From an uncultured Candidatus Saccharibacteria bacterium (GTDB taxonomy: Bacteria > Patescibacteriota > Doudnabacteria > UBA920): 49,757 nt of DNA. Under the pieces are notes generated by a model. It saw only the letters and a list, made by a program, of their open reading frames with translations, ran no database searches and was not told the DNA's origin. This document shows positions 13,386-25,989 of this stretch, piece after piece. The stretch is taken from the NCBI GenBank assembly GCA_964453405.1, contig CAYVOF010000001.1, positions 67,531-117,287 on the forward strand, in the 5' to 3' direction. The position numbers were made by a program, and so were the translations under genes. How positions within the stretch are numbered: the stretch's first letter is position 1; every line of letters starts with the position of its first letter.

Positions 13386-13421
13386 AAACTACCCATTGGC
13401 TCAAGCTGGCGGGTAGTTTTT
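13386..13421 (+). terminator. hairpin plus T-run after the surface-protein gene
   Basis: AAACTACCC / GGGTAGTTT stem with a 16-nt loop and trailing Ts. Confidence 0.5.
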
Positions 13422-13444
13422 GGTTATTATTAGCTCTAAATTAT

Positions 13445-14062
13445 ATGACGCCTCAGGTGTATAAAATGTTTAAATATGTGATTATCCTCGCTATTATCAT
13501 TGTGGTCGGATTTGTACTGCTTAATTTTGATTATTTTGTTAAGCAAGTCCGTTATTTTATGAGCGAGACTTTTGTGACAGACATACAGCGTCAAAATCTT
13601 CGCGATGAACATCCAATTACTGTTGAGCCAGATCAATTAATTATTCCTTCTTTATTAGATACAGTCGCACCTATTAAGTATGTTAGTGAAACTAATGAAG
13701 CAGCTTATCAAACGGCTTTAAAAGAAGGAGTGGTTCATTTTCCTGGTACTGCTGATGTGGGACAGGAAGGGAATGTATATATTTTTGGGCATTCATCGGA
13801 TTATGCTCTTTCTGACGGAAAGTACAAGACTATTTTTGCATTATTACCAAAAATAGAAATTGGCGCCGAGATTTTAATATCTGATCATGATGGACGACAG
13901 TATAAATATATTGTTTATGACAAATTTGTTGCGGAAAAGAATCAGGTGGAGTTGTTATCTCAAGAAACTGGTCAACACAAAATTTTAACCGTACAAACAT
14001 CGTATCCAATTGGCACTGCTCTAAAAAGATTTATTGTGAAGGCTGAACTGGAAGACAACTAA
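13445..14062 (+). CDS. sortase-family protein lacking the catalytic cysteine (Ser at the TLxTC position)
   Basis: N-terminal TM helix. The sortase His motif is GNVYIFGHSS. The TLxTC-equivalent reads LTVQTS (codon TCG). The Arg motif is KRFIVKA. The protein has no Cys anywhere. Confidence 0.8.
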   Translation: MTPQVYKMFKYVIILAIIIVVGFVLLNFDYFVKQVRYFMSETFVTDIQRQNLRDEHPITVEPDQLIIPSLLDTVAPIKYVSETNEAAYQTALKEGVVHFPGTADVGQEGNVYIFGHSSDYALSDGKYKTIFALLPKIEIGAEILISDHDGRQYKYIVYDKFVAEKNQVELLSQETGQHKILTVQTSYPIGTALKRFIVKAELEDN

Positions 14063-14171
14063 TTGTAAAGTTGGCTTAAATAAGAGAAATTTTTTGTGAG
14101 GAAGATGTCCATATTCAAAAAACCCTAAAATTTTATAGAGTTTTCCCCATAAACCCTTGACGAATTTCAAA

Positions 14172-14197
14172 AAACCCTTGTAAATCAGAGGGTTTTT
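14172..14197 (+). terminator. rho-independent terminator after the sortase gene
   Basis: AAACCCT / AGGGTTT stem followed by a T-run. Confidence 0.6.
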
Positions 14198-14312
14198 AGT
14201 TACTATTAATTTATACATAAGAGCTCGAATCCGAGCAATTTAATTAAATAATTATCTTTTACATTGCGCTGGTTCGCCAGCCGCTTCATCAAAAGATAAA
14301 AGGAAAACAAGA

Positions 14313-14585
14313 ATGACTAAGTCAGAAATCTTGCAGCACCTTGCCGAAAAAACTGGCAAGACCAAAAAAGAAGTTATCGAATTCATGGACGCCATGGTCG
14401 AATTAGCTTACAAAGAAACTAAGTCTAGCGGTGAATTTTCTATCCCTGGTTTAGGTAAGCTTAAGAAGAAGCACCGTGATGCTCGTATGGGCCGAAACCC
14501 TGCAACTGGCGCGACTATTTCTATTCCAGCAAAGACTGTAGTTAAGTTTACAGTTGCTAAAGCTGCTAAAGATTCTATTCTTTAA
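14313..14585 (+). CDS. hup: HU/IHF-family DNA-binding protein
   Basis: MTKSEILQHLAEKTG...FSIPGLGKLKKKHRDARMGRNPATGATISIPAKTVVKF (HU arm motif R-x-G-R-N-P-x-T-G). Confidence 0.9.
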   Translation: MTKSEILQHLAEKTGKTKKEVIEFMDAMVELAYKETKSSGEFSIPGLGKLKKKHRDARMGRNPATGATISIPAKTVVKFTVAKAAKDSIL

Positions 14586-14596
14586 GAACATGTAAA

Positions 14597-14692
14597 AATC
14601 CCAGAGAAATAAATATCTTTTCACCCAGTCGCTACGTTTCGCTCTGCGAAACTGGGCGACTGAGGCTCAGTCGATATTTTTTCTCTGGGATT
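14597..14692. terminator. 96-nt multi-hairpin element between convergent genes (probable bidirectional terminator, possibly more)
   Basis: A 13-bp outer stem, AATCCCAGAGAAA (14597-14609) / TTTCTCTGGGATT (14680-14692), encloses GTTTCGC-TCT-GCGAAAC and competing CAGTCGC/GCGACTG and GACTGAG/CTCAGTC pairings. Confidence 0.5.
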
Positions 14693-14717
14693 ACTGTTTT
14701 AAAGAATAAATTAAATG

Positions 14718-15263
14718 CTAGTTATTGATAGGGGGAGCACCAGCTTGGTTATTTACAGAAAGTTCCGCAGACTTTTCTGGATTAGCTAGTACTTCCTGCA
14801 CTTTTTTAAGAATTTCCTCGGTAGTAAAATAGGCCTTCACAAGATAAGCTTGCACATCAAGTGCCTTAGTCTTGAGGATGTCTTTGTTGCTCCAGAGGTT
14901 GCTAAGAATGATAATTGGAGTTTTAGCGATCTTGGCGTCAGGATTCTTGCGAATCGTTTCCAGAACCTTAAAACCATCGACTTCGGGCAACATCAAATCT
15001 AGCAAAACCAAACTTGGTTTTTCTGAGATTATTAGATCTATGCCTTCTTGGCCATCTTCTGCCTCTTTTACATTAAAGCCGTTAGTAGATAGCTTGTGGG
15101 CCACGATTTCGCGCATCGCTATGTCGTCTTCGACTACTACGATAGTAAGGTTGGTCGAGGAGGAAGCTAGTGGTGTCGGGGTTGCGGCTGGAGCTGCGCT
15201 AGTCGCCGGCTGGGGCGCTTGAGCCTCTGCAGGGGTAGATTGTGCGTTTGTTGGAGTATCCAT
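14718..15263 (-). CDS. stand-alone response-regulator receiver protein with an Ala/Pro/Thr-rich N-terminal tail
   Basis: VVVEDD...LVLLDLMLPEVDGF...PIIILSNL receiver motifs. No output domain. A TGGTATAAT box lies 10 nt upstream of the ATG. Confidence 0.85.
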   Translation of the reverse strand: MDTPTNAQSTPAEAQAPQPATSAAPAATPTPLASSSTNLTIVVVEDDIAMREIVAHKLSTNGFNVKEAEDGQEGIDLIISEKPSLVLLDLMLPEVDGFKVLETIRKNPDAKIAKTPIIILSNLWSNKDILKTKALDVQAYLVKAYFTTEEILKKVQEVLANPEKSAELSVNNQAGAPPINN

Positions 15264-15308
15264 AAGTGGGTTTATTATACCATAAATTACAGATAATTTT
15301 TAAATAGC

Positions 15309-16355
15309 ATGAATGAGCATATTGAGTTATTAGAAGAATTTGATAATCACAAGTTAGTATCGTTCGTTTTTGATAAAAAGCATAAAGTAGAAGCATATAT
15401 CGCTCTTCATAGGGGTAGTTTAACTAGTCCAAGTTTTGGAGCGACGAGGATAGTTAAGTATAGTCAAAAGGAAGATGCTTTGCGAGATGCACTGCGACTA
15501 TCGAGGTTAATGTCATACAAGGCGGCAATGGCTGGTTTGGATTATGGTGGTGGTAAGGGTGTAATCTTGCTTCCTGATAACATTACTGACGCTGAGCGTT
15601 CAAAAATTATTGAGTGTTACTGCGAAGCTTTAAATTACTACGGTGGCCACTTTGTAACAGGTGCGGATGTGGGAATTACAGATGATGATATGAAGATTAT
15701 GCATAAGCATAGTCAGTATATTGTTGGTGTCGAAAGTAATCCTGTTTTACATACAGCCCAAGGTTTATTTAAAGCCATTGAATTTTGTGTTGAAAAAAAG
15801 TTTGAAGATAGGGATTTGGGAAAACGTTCGTTTGCTATTCAAGGTGTGGGTAAAATAGGAACTGCATTATTAGAGCAGCTGTATGGCAAAGCCGCGAAAA
15901 TTGTTGTCACAGATCTAGACAATGACAGGTTAAAAGAAATCAAAAAGCAATATCCAGACGTCGAAGTAGTAGCGCCTACAGAAATTTATAAACAAGCGGT
16001 AGATGTATTTAGTCCTTGTGCGTTGAGTAATTCACTTACTTCTAAGACTATCACTCAGTTAAAAGCCTCGATAGTTTGTGGTGGAGCTAATAACCAATTG
16101 CAGGATAAATCAGTGGGTGAGTTATTGCACTCGTTAGGTATTTTGTATGCGCCTGATTACGTAGTGAATTGCGGCGGATTGATTTCGGTGGTAGATGAAT
16201 ATGAGCATAAAGGGTTTGATGCAAATCGTATTCAAACTCGTTTGAATAACATTGTTGTGATTCTTAAAGAGATTTTCACCCGAAGTCAAATGAACAATCG
16301 CGCTACTAACATTATTGCCGACGAAATGGCAGAAGAAATTTTTAATGGCCGTTAA
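15309..16355 (+). CDS. Glu/Leu/Phe/Val dehydrogenase family (Leu/Phe-dehydrogenase-like, 348 aa)
   Basis: DYGGGKGVI catalytic-Lys motif, FVTGADVG, GVGKIG Rossmann motif, and a size typical of Leu/Phe/Val dehydrogenases. Confidence 0.85.
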   Translation: MNEHIELLEEFDNHKLVSFVFDKKHKVEAYIALHRGSLTSPSFGATRIVKYSQKEDALRDALRLSRLMSYKAAMAGLDYGGGKGVILLPDNITDAERSKIIECYCEALNYYGGHFVTGADVGITDDDMKIMHKHSQYIVGVESNPVLHTAQGLFKAIEFCVEKKFEDRDLGKRSFAIQGVGKIGTALLEQLYGKAAKIVVTDLDNDRLKEIKKQYPDVEVVAPTEIYKQAVDVFSPCALSNSLTSKTITQLKASIVCGGANNQLQDKSVGELLHSLGILYAPDYVVNCGGLISVVDEYEHKGFDANRIQTRLNNIVVILKEIFTRSQMNNRATNIIADEMAEEIFNGR

Positions 16356-17883
16356 AAAACATGATAATCTTTCTTTTCCAACAGTGCTGCAAAAAGCAGA
16401 TATTACTGCTTTGGAAAAGAATCTTAAAACAAAACCAGATAGTTTTTGGAATAAGCGCGGGGAAGCTCGTGCTTTAAAGCTATTTCAGGAAATGGCTAAA
16501 CGAGTTCCTGCTTATAAAGATTTTTTAAAAAAGCATAAAGTTAATCCAACGAAGATTAAGAGCGCGGCAGATTTTGCTTTAGTGCCGCCAGTTGATAAGA
16601 AGAATTATCTACGAGCATATCCATTGGAACAATTGTGTTGGGACGGAGTATTGAACAAGCAGCAATCGGTTTATGCTTCGACATCTGGAACCACAGGGGA
16701 ACCCTTTTACTTTCCTCGTACAGATGCGCAAAGTCATCAGTATGCAATGACTGCGGAATTATATTTGCGCAATAATTTTCAAATTCATAAAAAATCTACT
16801 TTGTATATTAATGGGTTCGCAATGGGTGCGTGGATCGGCGGATTATTTACTTACGAAGCAATTCAAATTTTACAAAAAAAAGGTTACGACATTAGCGTAA
16901 TTACGCCCGGGGTAAACGCTAAAGAAATTTTAAAAGCCGTACGCGAGCTGGGTCCAAAGTATGATCAGATTATTTTGGGCGGCTACCCGCCGTTTGTAAA
17001 AGATACAATTGATTTGGGTGTAAGTGAAGGCGTGCATTGGAAAAAATACAATATGGGTATTATTTTTTCTGCCGAAGGTTTTACCGAACAATTCCGTGAT
17101 TACATTGTAAAGACTGCTGGTTTAAAAAATATTTACACCTCTACGTTGAATCACTATGGGACTGTTGATGAAGGCACTCACTCGCACGAAACGCCGTTAT
17201 CGATTTTAGTTCGCCGTTTAACAAATAAGAATAAGAGCTATAAAAAGGCACTGTTTCCAGAGACTGATCGACAGCCAACCTTAACTCAATATCTTCCAGA
17301 AATGTTTTATTTTGAAAGCGATAATGGTAATTTGTTGTGCTCCGCATTTAGCGGTTTGCCTTTGTTTAGGTATGATTTAAAAGATCGCGGTGGCATAATT
17401 CCGTTTAATGATGTTTTCGAAAAAGGGAAGGGGACTGGTGTTGATTTAGCAAAAGAAGTCCGCGCCAATAAATTAAAAGACACCATTTGGAACCTGCCCT
17501 TTGTTTACTTGTACGAGCGCAGTGATATGGTGGTGAGTTGGTATGGAGCAAATATTTACCCAGAGCATCTACGTACGGCTCATTTAGATAAAAGAGTTAA
17601 TAATAAAGTTTCTGGTAAATTCGCAATGCATATGATCAGTAATAAGAAATTGGACCCTGTATTGGAAGTTCATGTAGAATTAAAAAAAGGCATAAAGGCA
17701 ACTAGGAATTTTGCTAAAAATTTTACGGAACATTTAGTTAAAACCTTAAAGACATTTAACTCAGAATATAAAAATAATCATACTCATGCTCCACAAAAAA
17801 ACGTGCCCCGTATAAAGTTTTGGGAGTATCAAGTTGGTCCTCACTTCGCCGCAGCAGGCAAACAAAAATGGGTAATTAAATAA
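16345..17883 (+). CDS. adenylate-forming ligase, PaaK / coenzyme F390 synthetase-like
   Basis: TSGTTGEPFYFPRT AMP-binding P-loop of the PaaK/F390 clade. The ATG at 16345 overlaps the upstream stop by 11 nt; the track start at 16315 is an alternative. Confidence 0.75.
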   Translation: MAVKKHDNLSFPTVLQKADITALEKNLKTKPDSFWNKRGEARALKLFQEMAKRVPAYKDFLKKHKVNPTKIKSAADFALVPPVDKKNYLRAYPLEQLCWDGVLNKQQSVYASTSGTTGEPFYFPRTDAQSHQYAMTAELYLRNNFQIHKKSTLYINGFAMGAWIGGLFTYEAIQILQKKGYDISVITPGVNAKEILKAVRELGPKYDQIILGGYPPFVKDTIDLGVSEGVHWKKYNMGIIFSAEGFTEQFRDYIVKTAGLKNIYTSTLNHYGTVDEGTHSHETPLSILVRRLTNKNKSYKKALFPETDRQPTLTQYLPEMFYFESDNGNLLCSAFSGLPLFRYDLKDRGGIIPFNDVFEKGKGTGVDLAKEVRANKLKDTIWNLPFVYLYERSDMVVSWYGANIYPEHLRTAHLDKRVNNKVSGKFAMHMISNKKLDPVLEVHVELKKGIKATRNFAKNFTEHLVKTLKTFNSEYKNNHTHAPQKNVPRIKFWEYQVGPHFAAAGKQKWVIK

Positions 17884-17887
17884 ATTT

Positions 17888-19045
17888 ATGAAACAACAAA
17901 AAGACAATTTCGATCGCGTTAGTTACAAACCAATTCGATTAGATTCAAAAAAAGATTTTAAGCAACAGCTAAAAAAGTATTCTAATGCAAAGAATATAAC
18001 TGTTATAGATCAGTACTTAATTCAATTAGAAGAAGTTTTTTTGTTGCGTAACCCTAAGTATCGGTTTGATAAAGATTATCGGGGTGAGTTTGATAAATTT
18101 GCTAAAACACATGGTGGTAAAAATGGACTTTACCATTCTGGTTCGTGGTTTTATTTTCCATGGATGAACGCCGTTATTCATTACCTGTCTGATAAAGATC
18201 ATCAAGAGGTTAGAACTGGCCGTAATCGAAATTTGATTACTCAAGCTGAGCAAAATAAATTTTATAATTCTATCGTTGGTATTTTAGGTATGAGTGTAGG
18301 AAGCCATGTGGCTTTGACTATTGCTATGACTGGTGGAGCTCGTCATATTAAATTAGCCGATCTTGACGTGCTTTCTGCTTCAAACTTAAACCGTGTGCGC
18401 ACTGGTTTCCAAAATATCGAAGTTCCTAAGGTTGTGGCCGTTGCTCGCCAAATTTATGAAATTAATCCTTATGCAAAAGTAGAATTATATCAGCAAGGCA
18501 TTACCGAACAAGCTTTACATAAGTTTCTAGTCGGTTCAGGCAAGCTATCAGTACTCGTAGAAGAAATGGATCAACCATATTTTAAGATTAAAGTTCGTGA
18601 AGAAGCCCGCAAGTTGGGAATTCCTGTAATCATGGCGGCAGATAATGCTGATAGTATTATCGTTGACGTTGAACGTTATGATCTTAATAAAAAGTATCCG
18701 ATTTTGCATGGAATTTTAGGCAAGATGACAGCAGAAGAATTTAGACATGTAGCACCGCAGGATTTACCAAAAGTGATTGCTAAAATGGCTGGAGCAAATT
18801 TATCTACTATCAGAATGTTGGAATCAGTAATGCAAGTGGGTAAGACAATTTACTCTTGGCCTCAATTAGGAAACGCTGCCACGCTTTGTGGTTCTGTGTT
18901 AACTTACTTAGCTCGTAAAATAATTCTTAAAGAAAAAGTCCCATCAGGGCGAACAGATTTTAATGTTGATACAGCGTTTATGCCTATGACATCAGCGGAG
19001 AAAAAACAGCGTGACAAGATTTTTAAGATGATGGGGATTAAGTAA
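17888..19045 (+). CDS. ThiF/MoeB/E1-like adenylyltransferase with an about 125-aa N-terminal extension
   Basis: Rossmann IVGILGMSVGSHVA...IKLADLDVLSASNLNRV (ThiF D-x-D ... NLNR motif). The N-terminal WFYFPW...RTGRNRNLIT region is as I remember for Rv1355c-type proteins. Confidence 0.72.
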   Translation: MKQQKDNFDRVSYKPIRLDSKKDFKQQLKKYSNAKNITVIDQYLIQLEEVFLLRNPKYRFDKDYRGEFDKFAKTHGGKNGLYHSGSWFYFPWMNAVIHYLSDKDHQEVRTGRNRNLITQAEQNKFYNSIVGILGMSVGSHVALTIAMTGGARHIKLADLDVLSASNLNRVRTGFQNIEVPKVVAVARQIYEINPYAKVELYQQGITEQALHKFLVGSGKLSVLVEEMDQPYFKIKVREEARKLGIPVIMAADNADSIIVDVERYDLNKKYPILHGILGKMTAEEFRHVAPQDLPKVIAKMAGANLSTIRMLESVMQVGKTIYSWPQLGNAATLCGSVLTYLARKIILKEKVPSGRTDFNVDTAFMPMTSAEKKQRDKIFKMMGIK

Positions 19046-19050
19046 AATTT

Positions 19051-19671
19051 ATGAAATTTTATTTGTCATCATATAAATTAGGGAATGAAACCGACAAATT
19101 AAAAGAGCTTATTAGACAAGGTAATAAAAAAGTTGCCTATATACCGAATGCGTTAGACTTTAGCTTAGATGTCGAAAGAAGAGCACAAAGTGAGCAAACT
19201 GACATTGAAGATTTGCAATCTTTGGGGTTAGATGTCGATAGAATTGATTTACGCAATTTTTTCAGTAACAAAGAAGAGTTAAAAGAAAAACTAAACCTTT
19301 ATGATGTCTTTTGGGTCAGGGGTGGAAATGTTTTTGTCTTGAGGCAGGCAATGAGTTTGAGCGGTTTTGATTATATTCTCAAAAATTTAACTCATAAAAA
19401 TATTATATACGGCGGCTACAGTGCTGGGGTTTGTGTTCTTAGCCCAACACTAAAAGGATTTGGGCTTATGGATGATCCAAGTCAAAAACCCTATGGTAAC
19501 GATATCGAGACAATTTGGGATGGATTAGGGTTGATAGATTTTTCTATCGTCCCGCATTTTCAATCAGATCATCGTGAGTCTGATGATGCAAATAAGGTAG
19601 TGGAATACCTCACAACTGAGAAAATTTCTTTTAAGGCTATTAAAGATGGAGAAGTAATTATTATAGAATAA
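19051..19671 (+). CDS. peptidase S51 (dipeptidase E / cyanophycinase-like) family
   Basis: FWVRGGNVFVL, nucleophile-elbow GGYSAGVCV, and VPHFQSD His motif. Confidence 0.72.
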   Translation: MKFYLSSYKLGNETDKLKELIRQGNKKVAYIPNALDFSLDVERRAQSEQTDIEDLQSLGLDVDRIDLRNFFSNKEELKEKLNLYDVFWVRGGNVFVLRQAMSLSGFDYILKNLTHKNIIYGGYSAGVCVLSPTLKGFGLMDDPSQKPYGNDIETIWDGLGLIDFSIVPHFQSDHRESDDANKVVEYLTTEKISFKAIKDGEVIIIE

Positions 19672-19676
19672 TAGGA

Positions 19677-20480
19677 ATGTTATATAAATTAGATTTCCAC
19701 GGATTTGTTAAAAATGAGGCCAGTAAATCCAAAGTTCAGCCTTATTTTAAAAAACTTCTCAAAGAAGTAGAAAAGGTGTATACTCGTAGATTGGAGGGTA
19801 ATTTGCTCAGTATATACATAAGGGGGAGTGTTAGTGTGGGTAGAGCAAGACCCTACATTTCTGATTTGGATAGTGTTTGCGTAGTAAAAACTCCTATATC
19901 AAACAAAGATTTGTTATGGTTTGCAAAAACAGCCAAAATACTAGAAAAAAAGTATCCGAAAGTAACTCTAGTAGAGCTAGCGGTTGTATCACAATCCAAT
20001 TTACTAAAATCAAAGAAATATAAAAATTTAAGAGTTTATTTAAAGACACAGTCCTTTTGCTTAAAAGGGGTAGATGTAGTATCTGCGATTCCATCGGTGA
20101 AACCAGGTAAGGCTTTGGCGCAAGAGCTTTATGGCAATTTGGATAAAGAGCTGGAAACCCTAAAGAAAATTTTTACAGGAAAAATTAAAAACAAACAGTA
20201 TTTGTTCCAAAAAAGACCTATAGAGTTCTGGTGCGTATGGATGACTCGCGTACTATTGAGAGCAGGTTTAGGGTTGAAAATGATTCAAAAGCCTATCTAC
20301 TCTCAAGATCTACAAACCTGCTATAAAGTTTTTTCTAAATCTTATCCTCAATACAAAAATCAAATGCACCAATTGCTAAAGTGGTCTATAAAACCTATTA
20401 GTAATAAAAAAGAATTGTCTATTTTTTTGAATGATTTTGGTCCCAAGTTCATAAAATTATGGGATCAAGCAGTTAAGTAA
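19677..20480 (+). CDS. pol-beta-fold nucleotidyltransferase, AadA/ANT-like architecture
   Basis: IRGSVSVGRARPYISDLDSVCVV (G-S ... D-x-D) followed by a helical C-terminal domain. The size (267 aa) is close to ANT(3'') enzymes. Confidence 0.6.
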   Translation: MLYKLDFHGFVKNEASKSKVQPYFKKLLKEVEKVYTRRLEGNLLSIYIRGSVSVGRARPYISDLDSVCVVKTPISNKDLLWFAKTAKILEKKYPKVTLVELAVVSQSNLLKSKKYKNLRVYLKTQSFCLKGVDVVSAIPSVKPGKALAQELYGNLDKELETLKKIFTGKIKNKQYLFQKRPIEFWCVWMTRVLLRAGLGLKMIQKPIYSQDLQTCYKVFSKSYPQYKNQMHQLLKWSIKPISNKKELSIFLNDFGPKFIKLWDQAVK

Positions 20481-20494
20481 TTAATTATGAAGTT

Positions 20495-21550
20495 ATGAAA
20501 AAGATATTCCCAATAGTAATTTTGATTGTGATTATAGGTGCAGTAGGATTTTTTATTTCTCGACCAAAAACCGCTATTAATACAGAACAAAAGAAATTAG
20601 ACAAATTAACTGTTCAAGCAGGTTGGTTATTGAACGGAGAATTTGCGAATGTTTGTTCTGCAATCGTAAATGATTATTATAAGGATGAAGGGCTAGAGGT
20701 CGAGCTTGTTCCTGGTGGGCCAACAGGCGGTTCGTTTATAATTGCTACAAATGCTGTAGCGCAGAATCCTGATCTAGATATAGCAATTGATGGGGATATA
20801 GTCCCATTATTGCGTGGGGTTACTAAAGAGTCGCCTACAGAGCAATTAAAGATGAAAGCATTTGCGGCTTTTTGGAATGAAAACCCTTATGGTTTTATCG
20901 TTAAAAAAGACTCAGGAATCACAAGTCTTAAAGACTTAGCGTTAAAAATAAAACCTGATGGGACAAAGTATAAAATTGGAGTAACTGCAGATTCAGTTAT
21001 TCAGAATGCCATCGCCAGCTATGCCAATGTTTCAGTTAAAGATTTAAATTTAGAAACCGTAGGATTTGACGCATCTGCCTTTTTAAGCGGTCAAGTTGAT
21101 GCTTTAGCTTCTTATTGGACAACTCAAGCCTATGAAGTAGAAAAGGCAGGAATCGAATATAAATTTTTAAACGCGAGTGAACTACCCGGTTTTAATCAGC
21201 CTTCTATGGTTGCTTTAGCTAGTGATAAAACCTTACAAGATAAACATGATCAATTAGTAAAGTGGCTAAAAGCTACTATTAAAGGTTCTCAGTTTGTCGT
21301 AAGCAATCCTGCTAAGGCTGCAGAAATGATTACGGATAACCGTTGTGGGGGTTCAAATTTTGATGTTACTCAAGAAAAATGGTTAATTGAAAAATCTACT
21401 CCTCTATTTGATAAAAATAAAATTGGGTGGGTGTACGATAACCAAATTACTGGCTTTGCGGATGCATATTATAAGTTAGGACAGATACCTCGCAATCCGT
21501 CAGTTGATGAACTATTAGATTATTCTGTATTGAATTCAATTTATAAATAG
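20495..21550 (+). CDS. ABC transporter substrate-binding protein (NMT1/THI5-like, NitT/TauT type)
   Basis: N-terminal anchor helix, periplasmic-binding-fold pattern (VQAGWLLNGEFANV...YYKDEGLEVELVPGG), and adjacent ATPase and permease genes. Confidence 0.7.
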   Translation: MKKIFPIVILIVIIGAVGFFISRPKTAINTEQKKLDKLTVQAGWLLNGEFANVCSAIVNDYYKDEGLEVELVPGGPTGGSFIIATNAVAQNPDLDIAIDGDIVPLLRGVTKESPTEQLKMKAFAAFWNENPYGFIVKKDSGITSLKDLALKIKPDGTKYKIGVTADSVIQNAIASYANVSVKDLNLETVGFDASAFLSGQVDALASYWTTQAYEVEKAGIEYKFLNASELPGFNQPSMVALASDKTLQDKHDQLVKWLKATIKGSQFVVSNPAKAAEMITDNRCGGSNFDVTQEKWLIEKSTPLFDKNKIGWVYDNQITGFADAYYKLGQIPRNPSVDELLDYSVLNSIYK

Positions 21551-21555
21551 AACTC

Positions 21556-22317
21556 ATGGAATCACTGATTACCTTTGATGGAGTTTCTAAAGATTATTCA
21601 ACATCCAATAATAATTCTCTTGCAATAAAAGACATCAGTTTTCAGGTTTATAAAAATGAAATACTATCGATTTTAGGGCCTTCTGGATGTGGTAAAACTA
21701 CGATTCTACGTTTAATCGCTAATTCAATCATCCCTAGTAAAGGCAGAATCGATTACGGGAGCAAACCTATTGAGTGGGCTAAAAAAAATAGTCTTATTGG
21801 GTTAGTCTCTCAGAGCCCTTCCTTGTTACCAAATCGTACCGTAAAAGAAAATATAGCACTTTCTCTTGAGATTAGAGGTGGGTATAGCGAAGAGAAGATT
21901 CATAAGATAATTGAGCTCATGGGGTTGGTTGGAAGTGAGAACTATTACCCATATCAATTATCTGGAGGGATGAAGCAGCGTACTTCTTTAGCCCGATCGA
22001 TGATTTATGATCCGGAACTACTATTAATGGATGAGCCTTTTGCGTCATTAGATGAAATTATTCGCGAACGTTTAAATAGTGAGTTAATAAATATTCAACG
22101 AAAGACTCAACAGACTATTATTTTCGTCACTCACAATATCGAAGAAGCCGTTTTTTTATCTGATAGAATTTTGATACTTTCTAATACCCCAGGTAATATA
22201 ATCGGAAAAGTAAATGTTGGATTACCTAAAAATCGAACTTCAGAGGTAAGAAGTACTCAAGAATTTTTTGATATAACAAAGCAGGTCCGCTTACTTCTAA
22301 AGGAGAGCTATGTATAA
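21556..22317 (+). CDS. ABC transporter ATP-binding protein
   Basis: Walker A GPSGCGKTT, signature LSGGMKQR, Walker B LLLMDEPF. Confidence 0.9.
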   Translation: MESLITFDGVSKDYSTSNNNSLAIKDISFQVYKNEILSILGPSGCGKTTILRLIANSIIPSKGRIDYGSKPIEWAKKNSLIGLVSQSPSLLPNRTVKENIALSLEIRGGYSEEKIHKIIELMGLVGSENYYPYQLSGGMKQRTSLARSMIYDPELLLMDEPFASLDEIIRERLNSELINIQRKTQQTIIFVTHNIEEAVFLSDRILILSNTPGNIIGKVNVGLPKNRTSEVRSTQEFFDITKQVRLLLKESYV

Positions 22318-23095
22318 AAGAATAGTCCTATCTGTATTTCTAGTTTTGCTATTATTGACAACGTGGCAGATAATAGAAGACAAGGTTAACATAAGTAGAT
22401 TGCAAAGCAATCAGACGGCCTTAGAAGCTTTTATCCCCACACCTAAAACTATTGCAAAAACTTTTAGCACAGATTGGAGAGATATTAGTAGGGAAATTAG
22501 ACACACTTTAATTAAAGCTTACTTAGGTCTTATTATAGGGCTGATTTTTGCTTTATTGATGGCCAGCTTGTTTTTATTTTTTCCTTTTTTGAGAAATTTA
22601 TTTTTTCCATTATCATTTGCAATTAATTCATTTCCAATTATCGGCTTTGCACCAGTAGTTGTTTTGATTTTTGGACAAGGGTCATATTCTTCTATTATTT
22701 TTATTGCTGCCCTGATTTGTTATTTTCCGATTTTAATAAGTTTAGATACAGCTTTCCGGCAAACGGACAAAGATCTTTTAGAGTTTGCTAACATTATTAA
22801 CGCGAGTAAATGGCAAACTTTTAGTAAAATTCATTTCCCTTTAGCAATTCCATATTTAAACTTGTCTTTAAAGTTAGCTATCCCCGCTAGTATTATCGGC
22901 GCCACTATCGGAGAGTGGCTAGGGTCACGTTACGGGATAGGTCAGTTAATTACAATTGCCTTGTATCAACTTAAGCCAGGGTTGCTGTACTCTTCGTTGG
23001 TTTCAATAACATTGGTAAGTACTGTCAGTGTTTTGGCTCTGCAATTATTTGAACATATATATTTTCCATGGATAAAAAAAAGTCTTAGAAGATAA
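22310..23095 (+). CDS. ABC transporter permease (BPD-type)
   Basis: Six predicted TM helices. Overlaps the ATPase gene by 8 nt. Confidence 0.8.
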   Translation: MYKRIVLSVFLVLLLLTTWQIIEDKVNISRLQSNQTALEAFIPTPKTIAKTFSTDWRDISREIRHTLIKAYLGLIIGLIFALLMASLFLFFPFLRNLFFPLSFAINSFPIIGFAPVVVLIFGQGSYSSIIFIAALICYFPILISLDTAFRQTDKDLLEFANIINASKWQTFSKIHFPLAIPYLNLSLKLAIPASIIGATIGEWLGSRYGIGQLITIALYQLKPGLLYSSLVSITLVSTVSVLALQLFEHIYFPWIKKSLRR

Positions 23096-23110
23096 TTATC
23101 TTCTAAGACT
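23081..23110. terminator. perfect 30-nt palindrome, bidirectional terminator
   Basis: AGTCTTAGAAGATAA / TTATCTTCTAAGACT. The left arm encodes the last permease codons and stop. It lies between convergent operons. Confidence 0.6.
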
Positions 23111-23119
23111 TGCTATTTG

Positions 23120-24556
23120 TTAATCCCTTCCTCTGAATACTGGTCTTTTTGAAACCAGCATTCCAGGCAAGGATCTAAATGGCATATTATTAGTTTGCTG
23201 GGTCACTAACTCAGCTAACTCATCAATGCTCATTTGCTTCTGACTCTCTCCTCTAACTCTAACAGATAAATGGCCACCAGCCATCTCTTTGTCACCGCAC
23301 ACTACTATGTATGGAACCCATTCGCGCTCAGCTGCTCTTATCCTCCAGTTGAGTGATTCATTGCGCTCATCTACATCTACTCTGATTTTATGTGACTTGA
23401 ATTGTTCAGCCACATTCAATGCAAAGTCGACATGTTTTGCTTCTGAAACTGGAATGACTCGAACTTGAGTCGGGGATAACCATAATGGTAAGGTCGGCGG
23501 ATCCTTTTTGAGGGCATTCTCCAGAATAGAAAATATCCATCTCTCAATTGATCCAATTGAGCTGTGCACAATAGTACAGCCTTTTTGTTTACCATCCGGG
23601 TCCATGAAGGTGATCCCATAGAGTGAAGCATCTTTAATATCCAGTTGGACAGTCGAAGTTTGGCAAATCCCATCTCCGGTGTCTATGGTATTAATTTCAT
23701 GTTTCAGCACCCAGTAATGCTTCATCTCTGAGAGTATTTCGATGAAGGCAGGGGCCCCGCTATGCTTGATCATCTCCACCAATTCGTCCTTGTGCTCATC
23801 GTAAAACTCTTTTACGACTCGAAAAGCTACAGCATAACTGACATCCATACCATTTGCTAATTCGGTATAGCGTCGGTATAGCTCCTTGTATTCTTCGATA
23901 CCCTGATCAAGATTTTGGCAAAAGCTGTGGATGTCAGGCATCCAAAACCCTCGCAGCCTTCTTAACCCTGATAAGCTTCCACTTGATTCATAGCGGAAGC
24001 TTGGCGCGAATTCATACAAGCGAACCGGCAAATGTCTGTAGGTTAATTGGGCATCTCGCATTAAACGAAATAAACCAAAGTCTCCAGCAAACCTTAAGAT
24101 AAATTCCTTTTCAGGTTTATCCGGCAAGCGGACAATATAATGATGCTCGTGGAACGACTCGGCTTGGCTACGGATATCAGGTTCGCCCCAATCGTAAAGG
24201 ATCGGGGTTTCAATTGAGTACGCTCCAAGTCTTTCTAGGGCAATTTCCTCAGCCCACAGGCGTAGCAGTTCAAAAATCAATGCCCCTTTAGGATAAAAGC
24301 GAAAGTGGCCTTTATCACTAGCTGGTTCATAGTCAACTAGCTCCAACTCCTGCATCGCTCTTATAGAAAGTGGTTCGATACCGGGCTGACCCTTAATCAT
24401 TTCCACTTCCACCATTTTACGCAAGTTCGGATAGTCATCCAAAATTTCCAAATTTTCTAAATCTGGGTTAATTTCGAATTCCTTTCCGTCTTGATCCAGA
24501 ATAATAAATCTGGAATCTATATTGTCGACAATTTTCTTTCTCTCTGTCTGATTCAT
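23120..24556 (-). CDS. threonyl-tRNA synthetase-like class II aaRS, catalytic plus anticodon-binding domains only (no TGS or editing domains)
   Basis: Motif 2 FRYESSGSLSGLRRLRGFWMPDIHSFC and motif 3 GSIERWIF. ThrRS-type junction LPLWLSPTQVRVIPV. HGTP anticodon domain (IRVDVDERNESLNWRIRAAEREWVPYIVVCGDKE). Strong SD GGAGGAAAT. Confidence 0.8.
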   Translation of the reverse strand: MNQTERKKIVDNIDSRFIILDQDGKEFEINPDLENLEILDDYPNLRKMVEVEMIKGQPGIEPLSIRAMQELELVDYEPASDKGHFRFYPKGALIFELLRLWAEEIALERLGAYSIETPILYDWGEPDIRSQAESFHEHHYIVRLPDKPEKEFILRFAGDFGLFRLMRDAQLTYRHLPVRLYEFAPSFRYESSGSLSGLRRLRGFWMPDIHSFCQNLDQGIEEYKELYRRYTELANGMDVSYAVAFRVVKEFYDEHKDELVEMIKHSGAPAFIEILSEMKHYWVLKHEINTIDTGDGICQTSTVQLDIKDASLYGITFMDPDGKQKGCTIVHSSIGSIERWIFSILENALKKDPPTLPLWLSPTQVRVIPVSEAKHVDFALNVAEQFKSHKIRVDVDERNESLNWRIRAAEREWVPYIVVCGDKEMAGGHLSVRVRGESQKQMSIDELAELVTQQTNNMPFRSLPGMLVSKRPVFRGRD

Positions 24557-24576
24557 ATTTCCTCCACTAACTATGT

Positions 24577-25989
24577 TTAATCCCTACCTTTAAACACTGG
24601 TCTTTTTGAAACCAACATTCCAGGTAACGGTCTGAATGGCATATGTTGTGTTTGTTGCCTAATTAATTCTTTTAATTCTGCAACTATCATATGTCTTTGA
24701 TTTTCTCCTCTGACTCGAACTGCTAGATAATTATCGCTTATCTCTTTGTCCCCACATACAACCGTATAAGGGACCCATTCGCGTTCCGCAGCTCTTATTC
24801 TCCAGTTGAGTGATTCACTTCGATCATCTACATCCACTCTTATCTGATTGGATTTGAGTTGTTCAGCAACATTCAGTGAGAAGTCTAGATGCTTTTCCTG
24901 CGAAACGGGAATAATTCTAACCTGAGTCGGGGATAGCCATAATGGCAAAGTCGGCGATTCTTTTTTTAAAGCATCATCAACTGCTATGATCATCCACTTT
25001 TCAATGGAACCAAAAGATGTATGAATAACAACACATTCATTTTTATCACCATCATTTGTCATGTATTTAATCCCAAACTTTTTACCACTTTCAATATCGA
25101 ATTGAACATGGAATAAAGTTTGAGGATGTTCTGAGTATGAAATATGTTTCATTGACCAGTATTGGCGTTGACTTGAAATAATTTCAACCAACATTTTTTC
25201 TCCACTGGCCAGCATTTCGATCATGACATTCTTCATTGATTTATACAGATTTTCTGTAATTTTGAAGTGTATTACTAAATTTACTCCAACATCATTTGCC
25301 ATTTTGGTCAGAAGTCTTTGTATCTCCTGATATTCAATTAATGCTTCCTCCATGTTTGAACAGAAGCTATGAATATCAGTAAACGAAAATGATCTTCCTC
25401 TTCTAATTCCAGAAAGAGCCCCACTTTGATGATATCGAAAGCTATGTGTGTGTTCGTAGATTCTGAAAGGTAGATGTCGATATGTAAGCTGCGCACCTTT
25501 CATTATCTCGAACAAACCCAAGTCGTCATTAAAGCGGAGTACAAATTTTTCTTTGTTTTGTTCGCTTCCAAAAACTGGGTAAACACTATTGCTAAACATT
25601 CCTATCTGTTTATTAATATTTGAGTGATCCCAGTCGTAGATAAATGGTGTTTTTAATGGTAATGCTTCAAATGCTTCAGTAGCTATTTGTTCGCACCATC
25701 GGGTGAGTAGCTCATACATTAATGCCCCTTTGGGATAAAAACGAAAGTGTCCTTTATCACTGGCTGGTTCATAGTCAACTAACTCGAGTTTTTGCATCGT
25801 GTCCATCTGACTAGAAAATTGAACCGTACTAATTGCATCAACATTTGCGGTGATCACTTTGATCATTGCTGGGCTAAATTGATTTTCAATTTCGCGCCAG
25901 CTATCTTTTTGTAACGATATTTCATTACCCAAAGAATCGAGTGTAAAAAAACTGCTTGCTGGCAAGTTTTTGTTCTGATCTGTTTCCAT
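24577..25989 (-). CDS. ThrRS-like paralog with degenerate class II catalytic motifs
   Basis: Same architecture as the downstream copy. Long runs are identical to it (ELVDYEPASDKGHFRFYPKGAL, TLPLWLSPTQVR, SLNWRIRAAEREWVPY, LPGMLVSKRPVF). Motif 2 reads FRYHQSG...RRGRSFSFTDIH and motif 3 reads GSIEKWMI. Confidence 0.75.
   Translation of the reverse strand: METDQNKNLPASSFFTLDSLGNEISLQKDSWREIENQFSPAMIKVITANVDAISTVQFSSQMDTMQKLELVDYEPASDKGHFRFYPKGALMYELLTRWCEQIATEAFEALPLKTPFIYDWDHSNINKQIGMFSNSVYPVFGSEQNKEKFVLRFNDDLGLFEIMKGAQLTYRHLPFRIYEHTHSFRYHQSGALSGIRRGRSFSFTDIHSFCSNMEEALIEYQEIQRLLTKMANDVGVNLVIHFKITENLYKSMKNVMIEMLASGEKMLVEIISSQRQYWSMKHISYSEHPQTLFHVQFDIESGKKFGIKYMTNDGDKNECVVIHTSFGSIEKWMIIAVDDALKKESPTLPLWLSPTQVRIIPVSQEKHLDFSLNVAEQLKSNQIRVDVDDRSESLNWRIRAAEREWVPYTVVCGDKEISDNYLAVRVRGENQRHMIVAELKELIRQQTQHMPFRPLPGMLVSKRPVFKGRD

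Follow-up and report, generated by a model that had tools for sequence, protein, structure and literature searches.

The gene block and its boundaries

Eight tightly packed genes in the genome of a candidate-phyla-radiation bacterium raise the question of whether they serve one pathway. Within the whole stretch of DNA analysed here (49,757 nucleotides, referred to below as the window), the eight open reading frames lie on one strand at positions 15309–23095, exactly where the first-pass annotation had placed them, and its family calls hold for all eight (Table 1), as do the motifs it quoted: GGGKG in the dehydrogenase (at residue 80), TSGTTGEP in the ligase, NLNR in the ThiF-like enzyme and GS...DxD in the nucleotidyltransferase. 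That annotation read the block as a single pathway, in which the importer takes up an amino-acid- or peptide-derived compound and five enzymes process it. Neighbouring genes are separated by 4–14 nt (17883/17888, 19045/19051, 19671/19677, 20480/20495 and 21550/21556) or else overlap, the permease start at 22310 preceding the ATPase end at 22317. The ligase gene has two possible starts, TTG at 16315 or ATG at 16345; the ATG is favoured by the length of its homologues (495–515 residues) and gives an 11-nt overlap with the dehydrogenase gene. The perfect palindrome reported at the end of the block is present, with a total length of 32 rather than 30 nt; its arms (23080–23095 and 23096–23111) are 100% complementary and include the permease stop codon, and it looks like a terminator hairpin on both strands, that is, a bidirectional terminator. 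A hairpin scan of 15309–23095 found no other of comparable length; five short ones of 5–8 pairs were listed, and altogether the scan gave no more hairpins than expected from shuffled sequence. Because the spacing is tight and a single strong terminator-like palindrome stands at the end, co-transcription of the eight genes in this genome appears likely.

Table 1. Features of the locus, with positions in the window
Feature	Position	Strand	Module	Basis or detail
Receiver-only response regulator	14718–15263	-	A	Pfam Response_reg 1.7e-20; divergent from dehydrogenase gene
Leu/Trp-type NAD(P)-dependent amino-acid dehydrogenase (gene 1)	15309–16355	+	A	Pfam ELFV_dehydrog_N, ELFV_dehydrog
PaaK-fold adenylate-forming ligase (gene 2)	16345–17883	+	A	AF2 and Foldseek
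ThiF/E1-like adenylating enzyme (gene 3)	17888–19045	+	A	Pfam ThiF; N-terminal (cyclase) half of Rv1355c/TrzS family
S51 serine peptidase, PepE/cyanophycinase family (gene 4)	19051–19671	+	B	Pfam Peptidase_S51 3.8e-24
AadA/ANT(3'')(9)-fold nucleotidyltransferase (gene 5)	19677–20480	+	B	AF2 and Foldseek
ABC importer (genes 6–8)	20495–23095	+	B	NMT1/ThiY-like binding protein 20495–21550, ATPase 21556–22317, permease 22310–23095
Perfect palindrome, 16+16 nt	23080–23111	.		Between convergent permease and ThrRS genes
ThrRS1 and ThrRS2	23120–25989	-		23120–24556 and 24577–25989; tandem, archaeal-type, without N-terminal editing domain
Acg-family FMN-dependent oxidase, nitroreductase superfamily	26091–27143	+	A	NF047509 210.5 bits (cutoff 199)
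Histidine kinase with N-terminal 7-TM sensor	27143–28813	+	A	Pfam HisKA_7TM, HisKA, HATPase_c

Two independently conserved modules

The co-occurrence data contradict the one-pathway reading: the block consists of two independently conserved and unrelated gene sets lying side by side. Module A comprises genes 1–3 together with the receiver, the Acg-type oxidase and the 7TM kinase, and module B comprises genes 4–8. When 13 window proteins were compared by tblastn with 63 fetched loci, all of them module A loci, the ligase, oxidase and kinase were found beside ThiF almost everywhere, and the S51 peptidase, nucleotidyltransferase, binding protein, permease and ThrRS had no match in any of the 63. 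Counts were made on 30 non-redundant, well-flanked loci, each extending 3.5 kb or more to either side. In this set the ligase adjoins ThiF at 28 loci, the oxidase at 27 and the dehydrogenase at 23; the kinase lies nearby at 25, and the receiver is present at 13. Each module B gene scores 0/30, the sole exception being two generic ABC-ATPase matches at 26–27% identity. Co-occurrence outside this genome, on which the first-pass annotation had staked its reading, splits the block: dehydrogenase, ligase and ThiF are found together, in variable order, in dozens of genomes, the S51 gene is beside them in none (0/30 and 0/63), and genes 4–8 recur apart. Module A genes stay linked despite reshuffling, as in the orders ThiF-FDO-LIG-HK and FDO-DH-LIG-ThiF-HK.

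Relatives show a contiguous order of receiver (divergent)–dehydrogenase–ligase–ThiF–oxidase–kinase, as in L006 and L013, and the upstream synteny of the window (surface protein, sortase, HU, receiver) is common to L006. The receiver and the nitroreductase-coupled kinase, which had been taken for mere brackets around the block, are the missing half of module A. In close relatives genes 1–3 run straight into oxidase and kinase, or a different cargo comes next, as in L005 and L008, where it lies at the ThiF–oxidase junction that is also interrupted here. Insertion of foreign cargo at this junction has happened in this genome and, as separate events, in two or more close relatives; in this window the cargo consists of module B and the convergent ThrRS pair and sits inside module A. 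The module A cassette is conserved across candidate-phyla-radiation bacteria, and a few MAGs that are labelled as belonging to other phyla carry a more distant form of it.

Module B forms its own operon in at least eight other contigs, none of which carries module A genes (L064, L065/L077, L067–L069, L071, L072 and L074). The S51 gene lies directly upstream of the nucleotidyltransferase gene in L064, L065, L067–L069, L071, L072, L074, L079 and L084, and the three importer genes lie 3' of it in at least eight other contigs, with binding proteins 64–74% identical. The ThrRS pair travels with module B: L064 and L072 have the same convergent 478+470-residue pair after it, and L074 and L078 have one copy or more. 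The two ThrRS of the window are 51% identical and score 485 bits (ThrRS1, cutoff 484) and 388 bits (ThrRS2) against NF003068. The view of all eight genes as one pathway is thus largely refuted and, in our estimate, has almost no chance of being right; their close packing here is a chance arrangement of this locus.

Module B is not part of the chemistry of module A, and its own role is read from family and fold. Its peptidase carries the GYSAG nucleophile elbow and PH motif and matches DR_1070, PepE and Lmo0363 in the PDB (~1e-13). The nucleotidyltransferase has no Pfam match and reaches only 2e-4 against the ANT(3'') family; its AF2 model (pLDDT 95.6) matches AadA 6fzb in Foldseek (E 2.5e-8, TM 0.57–0.60, identity 13–15%), and its GS-x10-DLD motif (residues 50–65) is invariant. 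With only 59 homologues among 5.8 billion proteins, this family is small and specific to candidate-phyla-radiation bacteria. The importer components match NMT1 (2e-25), ABC_tran (6e-32) and BPD_transp_1 (1.6e-24), and the closest solved relatives of the binding protein are 4nmy and ThiY 3ix1, a formylaminopyrimidine binder. Module B would take up a small polar compound, which the hydrolase and nucleotidyltransferase may then process.

The ThiF-like enzyme and its flavin oxidase

The ThiF-like protein matches the Rv1355c family NF005901 with 317.6 bits (E 1.6e-94; residues 9–374 on model positions 7–349 of 722), the next-best family reaching 1.6e-18. Rv1355c is TrzS, an oxazolone synthetase in which a ThiF cyclase is fused to a flavin oxidase (PMC12856293), and TrzS, TyzB/TyzC and OxzB have been demonstrated by experiment to combine an ATP-dependent cyclase with an O2-dependent desaturase (PMC12856293, PMC10404671). 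In the window, unlike in TrzS, the two activities would reside in two separate genes 7 kb apart; in L061, where ThiF and oxidase are likewise separate proteins, ThiF scores 203 bits against the N-half of NF005901 and the oxidase 199 bits against its C-half. A glycine-rich loop, NLNRxR (NLNRVR at residue 166) and Asp228 of EEMD are invariant in the ThiF-like protein; Asp228 was equated with Asp217 of TrzS, and the FMN-site Arg of the oxidase with Arg540, by motif position only. The published ThiF plus flavin-oxidase oxazolone synthetases fit genes 1–3 closely.

Most ThiF-like enzymes have peptides, proteins or tRNA as substrates, and the cited review gives one small-molecule case only, which weighs against an oxazolone product. 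The enzyme described here might act on a macromolecule, as a TcdA-like tRNA t6A cyclodehydratase, an activator of a ubiquitin-like or sulfur-carrier protein, or a modifier of microcin-C/pantocin-type peptides, with the S51 peptidase and second ThrRS as immunity genes. Among solved structures TcdA, a cyclodehydratase, is closest to it, MccB and PaaA can be detected as relatives, and JGI labels several homologues tRNA threonylcarbamoyladenosine dehydratase. A duplicated aminoacyl-tRNA synthetase beside ThiF and a peptidase also recalls Trojan-horse inhibitors of these synthetases. However, the score against the TcdA family NF011696 is 30 bits (cutoff 304), to be compared with the 317.6 bits above, the tightly packed genes leave no room for a ThiS/MoaD-like or short precursor reading frame, and the peptidase and ThrRS pair belong to module B and are missing from every other ThiF locus. 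We regard a macromolecular substrate as very unlikely.

The oxidase is the partner of the ThiF enzyme. It scores 72.9 bits against the C-terminal half of Rv1355c and matches Acg (2ymv) at 3e-11, the APSxHNTQPW motif being common to both; the oxidases of candidate-phyla-radiation cassettes score higher against the Acg/Rv3131 family (183–240 bits) than against the Rv1355c C-half (56–79 bits). In the scheme of Grigg et al., Acg and Rv3131 are 'FDO-B', whereas OxzB, TyzC and TrzS form the FDO-A clade. That the window oxidase is closer to Acg/Rv3131 than to the C-half of TrzS counts against an oxazolone reading. We know of no Acg-type enzyme with a demonstrated substrate.

The ligase and the deaminating enzymes

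The ligase has no Pfam match and hits TIGR02155 PaaK at 1.6e-11, far under the cutoff. Its AF2 model (pLDDT 87.2) matches PaaK1 2y27 (E 3.9e-21, TMt 0.81), as well as BT_0428, 6siw/6six and ClxA 9s45, and its ANL motifs TSGTTGEP (residue 113), YGTVD, RYDLKD and a C-terminal GK are invariant; homologues form 530 clusters at E<=1e-30. The structure of ClxA was solved with 3-amino-4-hydroxybenzoate and its adenylate; the ClxA and NatL2 class are CoA-independent bond formers of benzoxazole pathways. OxzAB, TyzACB and TrzAS use an acyl-CoA-dependent N-acyltransferase, whereas module A has the ligase in its place, and neither the window nor the annotated contexts showed a GNAT or OxzA-like gene. With the ligase, formation of an N-acyl amino acid would thus need no acyl-CoA acyltransferase, but the enzyme could also be an ordinary CoA ligase with the acyltransferase encoded elsewhere.

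The dehydrogenase scores 286 bits against the NCBIfam ScyB Trp dehydrogenase, below the cutoff of 600, and its closest solved structures in a PDB search are TrpDH 5b37 (230 bits) and LeuDH 3vpx (229 bits). It alternates with an aromatic amino-acid ammonia-lyase in a mutually exclusive manner (dehydrogenase only in 32 loci, lyase only in 9, both in 0; five flanked loci have neither), and by type the lyases are similar to PAL/HAL and to the FlxA tyrosine ammonia-lyase. This alternation and the lyase types suggest that deamination is the first step.

Another possibility is that the ligase is a true aryl-acetate or 2-oxo-acid CoA ligase, acting with the dehydrogenase in catabolism or salvage of Leu, Phe or Trp, and that ThiF, oxidase and kinase form a separate redox-sensing unit. 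The best sequence and fold matches of the ligase are indeed phenylacetate-CoA ligases, the oxidase is an Acg-family member, and the oxidase and kinase genes, the kinase start overlapping the oxidase stop, remained joined when the cassette split; in mycobacteria, too, Acg/Rv3131 proteins lie next to DosS, Rv3131 adjoining dosS. Yet the ligase is bound to ThiF by DH-LIG-ThiF and LIG-ThiF fusions, in rearranged loci (for example L019, L030 and L054) the oxidase adjoins ThiF and not the kinase, and the contexts lack downstream catabolic enzymes. We consider this arrangement unlikely. DH-LIG fusions (dehydrogenase to ligase in P0317 and P0351) and ThiF-LIG fusions were found as well, although metagenome-derived fusion proteins can be gene-calling artefacts. 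Several loci have a SAM methyltransferase within the cassette; together with the fusions, it suggests physical coupling and a small-molecule character of the product.

The kinase and the receiver

The kinase is present in 25 of the 30 close loci, being absent nearby in the other five, and in 5/5 distant loci. The receiver has an Ala/Pro/Thr-rich N-terminal tail of 38 residues and no output domain; its homologues occupy the same divergent position in 13 of the 30 well-flanked close-group loci, and are 54–82% identical in L005, L006, L011, L013, L015, L018, L026, L027, L041 and L050. The recurrence of the kinase is consistent with a module A product that serves this kinase itself, as prosthetic group or dedicated ligand, instead of being a free metabolite. 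The one distant-group, lyase-type kinase scanned against Pfam (L061) has a GAF domain, a classic fold for binding small ligands and chromophores, and there are lyase plus ligase pairs of the TAL/FlxA-FlxY type; photoactive yellow protein owes its chromophore to a tyrosine ammonia-lyase and a p-coumarate ligase, and a desaturated aryl-oxazolone is the oxygen analogue of the GFP chromophore. On the other hand, Pfam found 7TM, HisKA and HATPase domains but no GAF in the window kinase, and, to judge by record names, many source samples appear to come from groundwater or sediment, settings that make light sensing improbable. We give such a dedicated ligand a small chance; it is compatible with oxazolone synthesis and does not exclude it.

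A proposed pathway

All chemical steps of module A, its product included, are inferred from the N-acyl-oxazolone pathway described for OxzAB, TyzACB and TrzAS, of which module A would be a variant. The dehydrogenase would deaminate a hydrophobic or aromatic amino acid to supply the 2-oxo acid, or, in other genomes, a PAL/TAL-type ammonia-lyase would give an aryl-acrylate. The ligase may then adenylate this acid and attach it to the amino group of a second amino acid, replacing the acyl-CoA-dependent N-acyltransferase. ThiF would adenylate the carboxylate of that amino acid, so that the amide oxygen closes the oxazolone ring, which the flavin oxidase may desaturate. Sensing of the hydrophobic product, or control over its synthesis, could fall to the membrane-bound 7TM kinase and the receiver that lacks an output domain. 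For genes 1–3, the earlier idea that an amino-acid-derived compound undergoes ATP-dependent activation or conjugation makes sense, although not as uptake followed by activation across eight genes. Module A probably makes an oxazolone-type small molecule; for the explanation as a whole, in which module A would be a ligase-dependent, kinase-coupled variant of oxazolone biosynthesis beside an independent module B, we put the chance at somewhat better than even.

A conserved cassette interrupted by an importer operon

Two unrelated gene sets share the closely packed block of eight genes at 15309-23095. Genes 1-3 (a Leu/Trp-type dehydrogenase, a PaaK-fold ligase and a ThiF-like protein), together with a receiver, a flavin-dependent oxidase and a histidine kinase, make up a widely conserved, unannotated cassette, here called module A. 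Genes 4-8 (an S51 peptidase, a nucleotidyltransferase, and the binding protein, ABC ATPase and permease of an importer; module B) are an unrelated importer operon that interrupts this cassette in the window. The description of the genes in the first-pass annotation has held up well: ORF calls place all eight on the plus strand at the coordinates it gave, neighbouring genes overlap slightly or are 4-14 nt apart, and all eight family assignments agree with domain and profile matches, as well as with the predicted folds of the ligase and the nucleotidyltransferase. The palindrome reported at the end of the block is indeed perfect, its length being 32 nt and not 30. It extends over the permease stop codon, and its score is that of a terminator-like hairpin whichever strand is read.

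The distinction between the two modules comes from their occurrence in other genomes. Homologues of the ThiF protein numbered 817 at E<=1e-5, most of them 50-87% identical; a family-alignment scan with one genome per species gave 54 loci, and 13 window proteins were compared with all loci by tblastn. Genes were counted when they lay within 6 kb of ThiF, in a set of 30 non-redundant loci with at least 3.5 kb on each side. The ligase was found in 28 of these 30 loci, the Acg-type oxidase in 27, the histidine kinase in 25, the dehydrogenase in 23 and the receiver in 13. Within the same distance, tblastn detected the S51 peptidase, the nucleotidyltransferase, the binding protein, the permease and the threonyl-tRNA synthetase (ThrRS) in none of the 30, and the ABC ATPase had two generic matches (26-27% identity). 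Linkage within module A is kept despite reordering, with the ligase (LIG), oxidase (FDO), dehydrogenase (DH) and kinase (HK) arranged as ThiF-FDO-LIG-HK, FDO-ThiF-LIG-HK or FDO-DH-LIG-ThiF-HK. In locus L006, from a 68%-identical relative, a surface protein, a sortase, HU, the divergent receiver, the dehydrogenase, the ligase, ThiF, the oxidase and the kinase are contiguous, and the upstream synteny from the surface protein to the receiver is common to L006 and the window. Since they are contiguous with genes 1-3 in L006 and linked to them across loci, the receiver, 'nitroreductase' and kinase that had been regarded as brackets of the block are the remaining members of module A.

Module B, for its part, forms an operon of its own, in the order S51 peptidase, nucleotidyltransferase, binding protein, ABC ATPase and permease, in L064, L065 (= L077), L067, L068, L069, L071, L072 and L074, and none of the module A genes occurs in these neighbourhoods. 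Co-occurrence elsewhere, on which the reading of the block as one route of uptake and activation depended, was thus found for genes 1-3, which recur together; genes 4-8 do not join them in the loci compared and belong to a separate conserved operon, so that we reject a single eight-gene pathway.

The nearest contigs with homologues bear labels such as Saccharibacteria and Doudnabacteria, and by these labels the window would come from a small-genome, Patescibacteria-like bacterium; it encodes a sortase, a large surface protein and few metabolic functions. A literature search found no paper on the module A gene combination in Patescibacteria, and a published review of ThiF proteins makes no mention of kinase-linked or PaaK-linked clusters. 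Public records name the ThiF protein MoeB, ThiF or TcdA, and the oxidase 'nitroreductase'.

Features of the window and of related loci
Locus	Feature	Coordinates	Strand	Remarks
Window	AlaRS, C-terminal part	30-806	+	tRNA-synt_2c + tRNA_SAD; truncated by window edge
Window	Receiver (module A)	14718-15263	-	
Window	Dehydrogenase (module A)	15309-16355	+	
Window	Ligase (module A)	16345-17883	+	
Window	ThiF protein (module A)	17888-19045	+	
Window	Cargo at ThiF-oxidase junction	19046-26090		
Window	S51 peptidase (module B)	19051-19671	+	
Window	Nucleotidyltransferase (module B)	19677-20480	+	
Window	Importer (module B)	20495-23095	+	Binding protein, ABC ATPase, permease
Window	Palindrome, two arms	23080-23095 / 23096-23111		
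Window	ThrRS1	23120-24556	-	
Window	ThrRS2	24577-25989	-	
Window	Divergent region	25990-26090		100 bp
Window	Oxidase (module A)	26091-27143	+	Annotated start ATG 26091
Window	Best promoter-like match on this strand	26094-26122	+	Extended -10 TG
Window	Kinase (module A)	27143-28813	+	
Window	Two tandem RNase_T-family exonuclease genes	31954-33085	-	
Window	WecG/TagA glycosyltransferase fused to NUDIX domain	34803-36134	+	
Window	Region of 2.4 kb	42367-44755		No ORF >=100 aa on either strand, no Rfam match, no tandem repeats; GC down to 0.30-0.34 at 3' end
L005	Cargo at ThiF-oxidase junction	11186-16609		
L008	Cargo at ThiF-oxidase junction	3749-13137		
L011	SAM-dependent methyltransferase	7669-8469		
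L045	SAM-dependent methyltransferase	13722-14474		
L048	SAM-dependent methyltransferase	12140-12859		
L051	SAM-dependent methyltransferase	7604-8416		
L064	ndk	11447-11896		After module B permease
L065 (= L077)	PheRS-alpha-like pair	4841-7219		More distant genome

Cargo and transcription

In the window, 19051-25989 (module B with the ThrRS pair) behaves as a single block inside module A, as the same operon and ThrRS pair recur together in L064 and L072. The junction between ThiF and oxidase is uninterrupted in L006 and L013, and holds different cargo in three close relatives, namely the window, L005 (CP064996.1; a DNA methyltransferase, an SNF2/ResIII helicase and a 92-aa aromatic-lyase fragment) and L008 (~9.4 kb with about ten unrelated genes). 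The possibility that module B is a mobile element found no support: a search for direct and inverted repeats across 18800-26300 revealed no flanking repeats, only ThrRS paralogy and chance matches, and integrase, transposase and recombinase families had no match among window ORFs of at least 100 aa. GC content was uninformative as an insertion marker, the values for the genes of the two modules overlapping (0.33-0.36 in module B; 0.32 for the oxidase and 0.36-0.38 for the dehydrogenase, ligase and ThiF genes of module A).

Close spacing, and the lack of a long or strong terminator-like hairpin before 23080, make a single transcript from dehydrogenase to permease likely in the window genome. 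Module B would in that case have come under the promoter of module A, and the oxidase-kinase pair would be transcribed from the divergent region, which contains good -35/-10 matches on both strands (consensus matches only). Here, a shared terminator and close packing did not equal a shared pathway.

Two start codons deserve comment. For gene 2, a homologue length of 495-515 aa makes ATG 16345 a more probable start than TTG 16315. The annotated ATG of the oxidase sits under the best plus-strand promoter-like match, and the in-frame ATG 26130 is preceded by AAGGAA; the true start may be this ATG, 13 codons downstream.

The ThiF protein and its flavin oxidase

The window ThiF protein matches the whole ThiF half of NF005901, the Rv1355c family (317.6 bits, E 1.6e-94, model positions 7-349 of 722), the cutoff of 476 having been set for the two-domain fusion and being out of reach for a half protein; the next-best NCBIfam family is at 1.6e-18. 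On these profile matches we place it in PF00899 with the TrzS/TyzB/OxzB branch. Among solved structures, TcdA, an ATP-dependent cyclodehydratase, is nearest to the family profile, and the catalytic Asp, assigned by motif position only, would be Asp228 in the invariant EEMD. Rv1355c is TrzS (PMC12856293), which converts N-acyl-tryptophan to N-acyl tryptazolone by ATP-dependent cyclization followed by O2-dependent desaturation; TyzB/TyzC and OxzB carry out the equivalent cyclization and desaturation on tyrosine or phenylalanine (PMC12856293, PMC10404671, bioRxiv 10.1101/2020.06.11.147165). A distant cassette in an Acidiferrales-labelled MAG (L061) bridges module A to the TrzS type, because its ThiF protein, encoded separately from the oxidase, scores 203 bits on the N-half of Rv1355c and the oxidase 199 bits on the C-half.

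A microcin-C-like system would bring together an MccB-type ThiF protein, a peptidase and a resistant copy of an aminoacyl-tRNA synthetase. We reject this reading because the ThiF protein is far closer to Rv1355c (E 1.6e-94) than to MccB (2.5e-5 in a profile search), there is no space for a precursor ORF, and the peptidase and the ThrRS pair go with module B. Some source annotations call the protein a TcdA tRNA cyclodehydratase, a reading rejected on its score of 30 bits (cutoff 304), and activation of a ThiS/MoaD sulfur carrier was rejected as no carrier gene occurs in any examined context.

The oxidase scores 210.5 bits on NF047509, the Acg family (cutoff 199), and, more weakly, 72.9 bits on the C-half of Rv1355c; the L061 oxidase reaches 135 bits on the Acg model. 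The best solved match of the window oxidase is Acg (2ymv), and the APSxHNTQPW motif is present in both. The oxidase of the candidate-phyla-radiation cassettes is Acg-type and may lie outside FDO-A, the clade of OxzB, TyzC and TrzS. It also differs from Acg, Rv3131 and Rv3127 of the mycobacterial DosR regulon in that its gene is embedded beside ThiF in a biosynthetic-looking cassette; the two adjoin in 27 of the 30 loci and are 7 kb apart in the window. We know of no mycobacterial Acg-type protein with a known substrate.

The ligase and the deaminating first enzyme

No Pfam family matches the ligase. Its AlphaFold model (pLDDT 87) has PaaK1 as the top Foldseek hit (E 3.9e-21, TM 0.81), the score on TIGR02155 (PaaK) is 43.4 bits against a cutoff of 646.3, and it carries the invariant adenylation motifs TSGTTGEP, YGTVD, RYDLKD and a C-terminal GK. 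Its family comprises 530 clusters (50% identity) at E<=1e-30 among 1.84 billion representatives. Among its fold neighbours are ClxA, solved with 3-amino-4-hydroxybenzoate and with its adenylate, and the 'PaaK family AMP-ligase' 6siw/6six, which we take to form esters or amides without CoA in benzoxazole pathways. The window ligase shares the fold (TM 0.65-0.81) and the core adenylation motifs with these and other PaaK-family ligases, but is only 15-19% identical to them and ~80 residues longer, and it may still be an ordinary CoA ligase.

The dehydrogenase belongs to the ELFV family (PF02812, 60.3 bits, and PF00208, 59.2 bits, both above the gathering score; GGGKG at residue 80). Against ScyB it scores 286 bits (cutoff 600), and TrpDH and LeuDH structures match it equally well. 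Across the cassettes a dehydrogenase is present in 32 loci, an aromatic ammonia-lyase in 9 and both in none; neither is found in 10 loci, five of which end at a contig edge. The lyase lies directly upstream of the ligase in all seven distant-group loci, and occurs also in L016, L019 and L032. By similarity these lyases are PAL/HAL-like or like FlxA, the tyrosine ammonia-lyase of flexirubin synthesis, on which the L019 type scores 624 bits, and the window ligase has a weak FlxY match (3.8e-8). No other clue to the pathway logic is as strong as this alternation of non-orthologous enzymes, which suggests that the first enzyme makes the carboxylic acid that the ligase activates. Lyase-type cassettes thus pair a PAL/TAL-family lyase with a ligase, as do the TAL-pCL pair for the PYP chromophore and flexirubin FlxA-FlxY; unlike these, the window has a dehydrogenase and no lyase, the ThiF and oxidase steps come after, and the ligase family is far from the 4CL/FlxY equivalogs.

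Fused proteins encoded on metagenomic contigs join dehydrogenase and ligase (P0317), ligase and ThiF (P0301), ThiF and ligase (P0365), or all three as DH-LIG-ThiF (P0351). A class I SAM-dependent methyltransferase, which looks like a tailoring enzyme, lies within the cassette at varying positions in several loci; the table gives four of them. Both features support one pathway acting on one substrate.

The importer operon and its synthetase neighbours

Conservation within module B is highest for the binding protein (64-74% identical across loci). Its best solved relatives, 4nmy and ThiY (3ix1), are modest matches (E 1e-10 to 1e-12), the latter a binder of formylaminopyrimidine, a thiamine-pyrimidine precursor. 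Module B resembles ThiXYZ importers in combining an NMT1/THI5-fold binding protein with an ATPase and a permease; however, its importer genes are accompanied by those for an S51 peptidase and an AadA-fold nucleotidyltransferase, neither of which is a thiamine-salvage partner. Identity with the SaoA/SaoP transporter was rejected, the scores being well below cutoff and that family being an unrelated selenoprotein-associated system.

The S51 enzyme scores 85.9 bits on PF03575 (gathering score 23.9) and has a GYSAG nucleophile elbow, but reaches neither the PepE (36.9 versus 156 bits) nor the cyanophycinase (25.4 versus 126.6) equivalog; its likeness to those enzymes lies in S51 Pfam membership and the Ser nucleophile elbow. 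The nucleotidyltransferase, from a small family of 59 proteins, likewise resembles AadA/ANT(9) in its two-domain fold (pLDDT 95.6, TM ~0.6, 13-15% identity) and its invariant GS-x10-DxD motif; it scores 12-21 bits on the aminoglycoside NCBIfam families (cutoffs 193-595; best 21.2 versus 500). A resistance-gene label was rejected for both enzymes, the nucleotidyltransferase sharing only the fold with ANT(3'')/ANT(9). Their conservation beside the importer in small-genome bacteria argues that they process a compound brought in by it, and against classic antibiotic resistance. From sequence we can say only that module B appears to be an uptake system with two cytoplasmic processing enzymes.

Directly after the permease, ndk is found in five fetched records (L064, L065, L067, L071 and L072), which represent four distinct contigs (L065 = L077); it is absent from this position in the window and L074. 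The tandem ThrRS1 and ThrRS2 that follow module B in the window are archaeal-type and 51% identical, with three stretches of 72-79% identity between their DNA sequences. ThrRS1 just reaches the NF003068 cutoff (485 versus 484) and ThrRS2 falls below it (388.4); both align to this model from ~143-149 to 612 only, and are without the N-terminal editing domain. Both have Asp at the zinc site where the E. coli and S. aureus enzymes have a Cys ligand (MNCP motif). A convergent ThrRS pair (478 and 470 aa, as in the window) follows module B in L064 and L072, and at least one of the genes is present in L074 and L078; the association in the window, L064, L072 and L074 may partly reflect shared ancestry of the contigs. 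In L065, a PheRS-alpha-like pair stands beside module B instead (370 and 375 aa, 38% identical, one with a weak FDX-ACB match).

Discussion

Module A is best described, on the basis of its sequences, as a putative ligase-dependent, two-component-coupled variant of oxazolone biosynthesis. In such a pathway, an amino acid would be deaminated to a carboxylic acid, either a 2-oxo acid by the dehydrogenase or an aryl-acrylate by the lyase, and the ligase would activate this acid as an acyl-AMP and attach it to the amino group of another amino acid, to yield an N-acyl amino acid. The ThiF protein would then adenylate the free carboxylate, the amide oxygen would close the oxazolone ring, and the flavin oxidase would desaturate the C-alpha-C-beta bond.

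The named oxazolone systems are OxzAB of Pseudoalteromonas rubra, and TyzACB (Rv2336-Rv2338c) and TrzAS (Rv1356c-Rv1355c) of Mycobacterium tuberculosis. Like these, module A pairs an ATP-dependent ThiF-like enzyme with a nitroreductase-superfamily flavin oxidase, and it would also use aromatic or hydrophobic amino-acid precursors. The two enzymes are encoded by separate genes; Tyz shares this arrangement, Oxz and Trz do not. On the other hand, all known oxazolone clusters contain an acyl-CoA-dependent N-acyltransferase (OxzA, TyzA or TrzA), whereas module A has a PaaK-fold adenylating ligase in its place; it adds an amino-acid dehydrogenase or ammonia-lyase upstream, includes a 7TM histidine kinase and receiver as integral parts, and is found in Patescibacteria instead of Actinomycetota or Pseudomonadota. 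Acyltransferase families had no match among window ORFs of at least 100 aa and the 90-aa HU gene, nor was an acyltransferase present in the annotated contexts of L001, L002, L005, L006 and the P0120 contig. Although a Pfam model may be missing for TyzA-like proteins, every gene inside the cassette is assigned. This suggests a CoA-independent route to an N-acyl amino acid, whose acyl donor is made on site by amino-acid deamination. Such a route would fit organisms of minimal metabolism, and would widen the chemistry expected of ThiF-oxidase clusters.

The physiological role of bacterial oxazolones was left open in the discovery papers, which speculated on signalling or stress (PMC12856293; bioRxiv 10.1101/2020.06.11.147165), and cyclic-di-GMP genes beside trzAS were remarked on by the authors of the oxazolone work. 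The conserved kinase of module A is a firmer genomic link to signalling than those genes, its conservation being on par with that of the enzymes. The 7TM kinase and output-less receiver might sense the hydrophobic product or gate its making; as the receiver carries no output domain, the two-component output is probably not direct control of transcription. The window receiver begins with a tail of 38 residues rich in Ala, Pro and Thr, and lacks output domains of any kind, a DNA-binding one included. The L061 kinase, the one distant-group kinase scanned, carries an extra GAF domain. It is conceivable, though we consider it rather unlikely, that module A is a self-contained 'make-and-sense' circuit, in which an oxazolone (azlactone) is built from two amino acids solely by ATP-dependent ligation and the 7TM (or 7TM-GAF) kinase serves as its receptor or as the carrier of a chromophore-like ligand.

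Were this cassette recognized, labels for several hundred Patescibacteria protein families would be put right. It links a TrzS-type pair of ThiF protein and flavin oxidase to a membrane histidine kinase and receiver in dozens of genomes, and this linkage offers a concrete handle on the role of oxazolones: does the kinase sense the product? If the make-and-sense circuit were real, it would represent private chemical signalling or host-sensing in ultra-small bacteria of the candidate phyla radiation, and provide the first physiological role for bacterial oxazolones.
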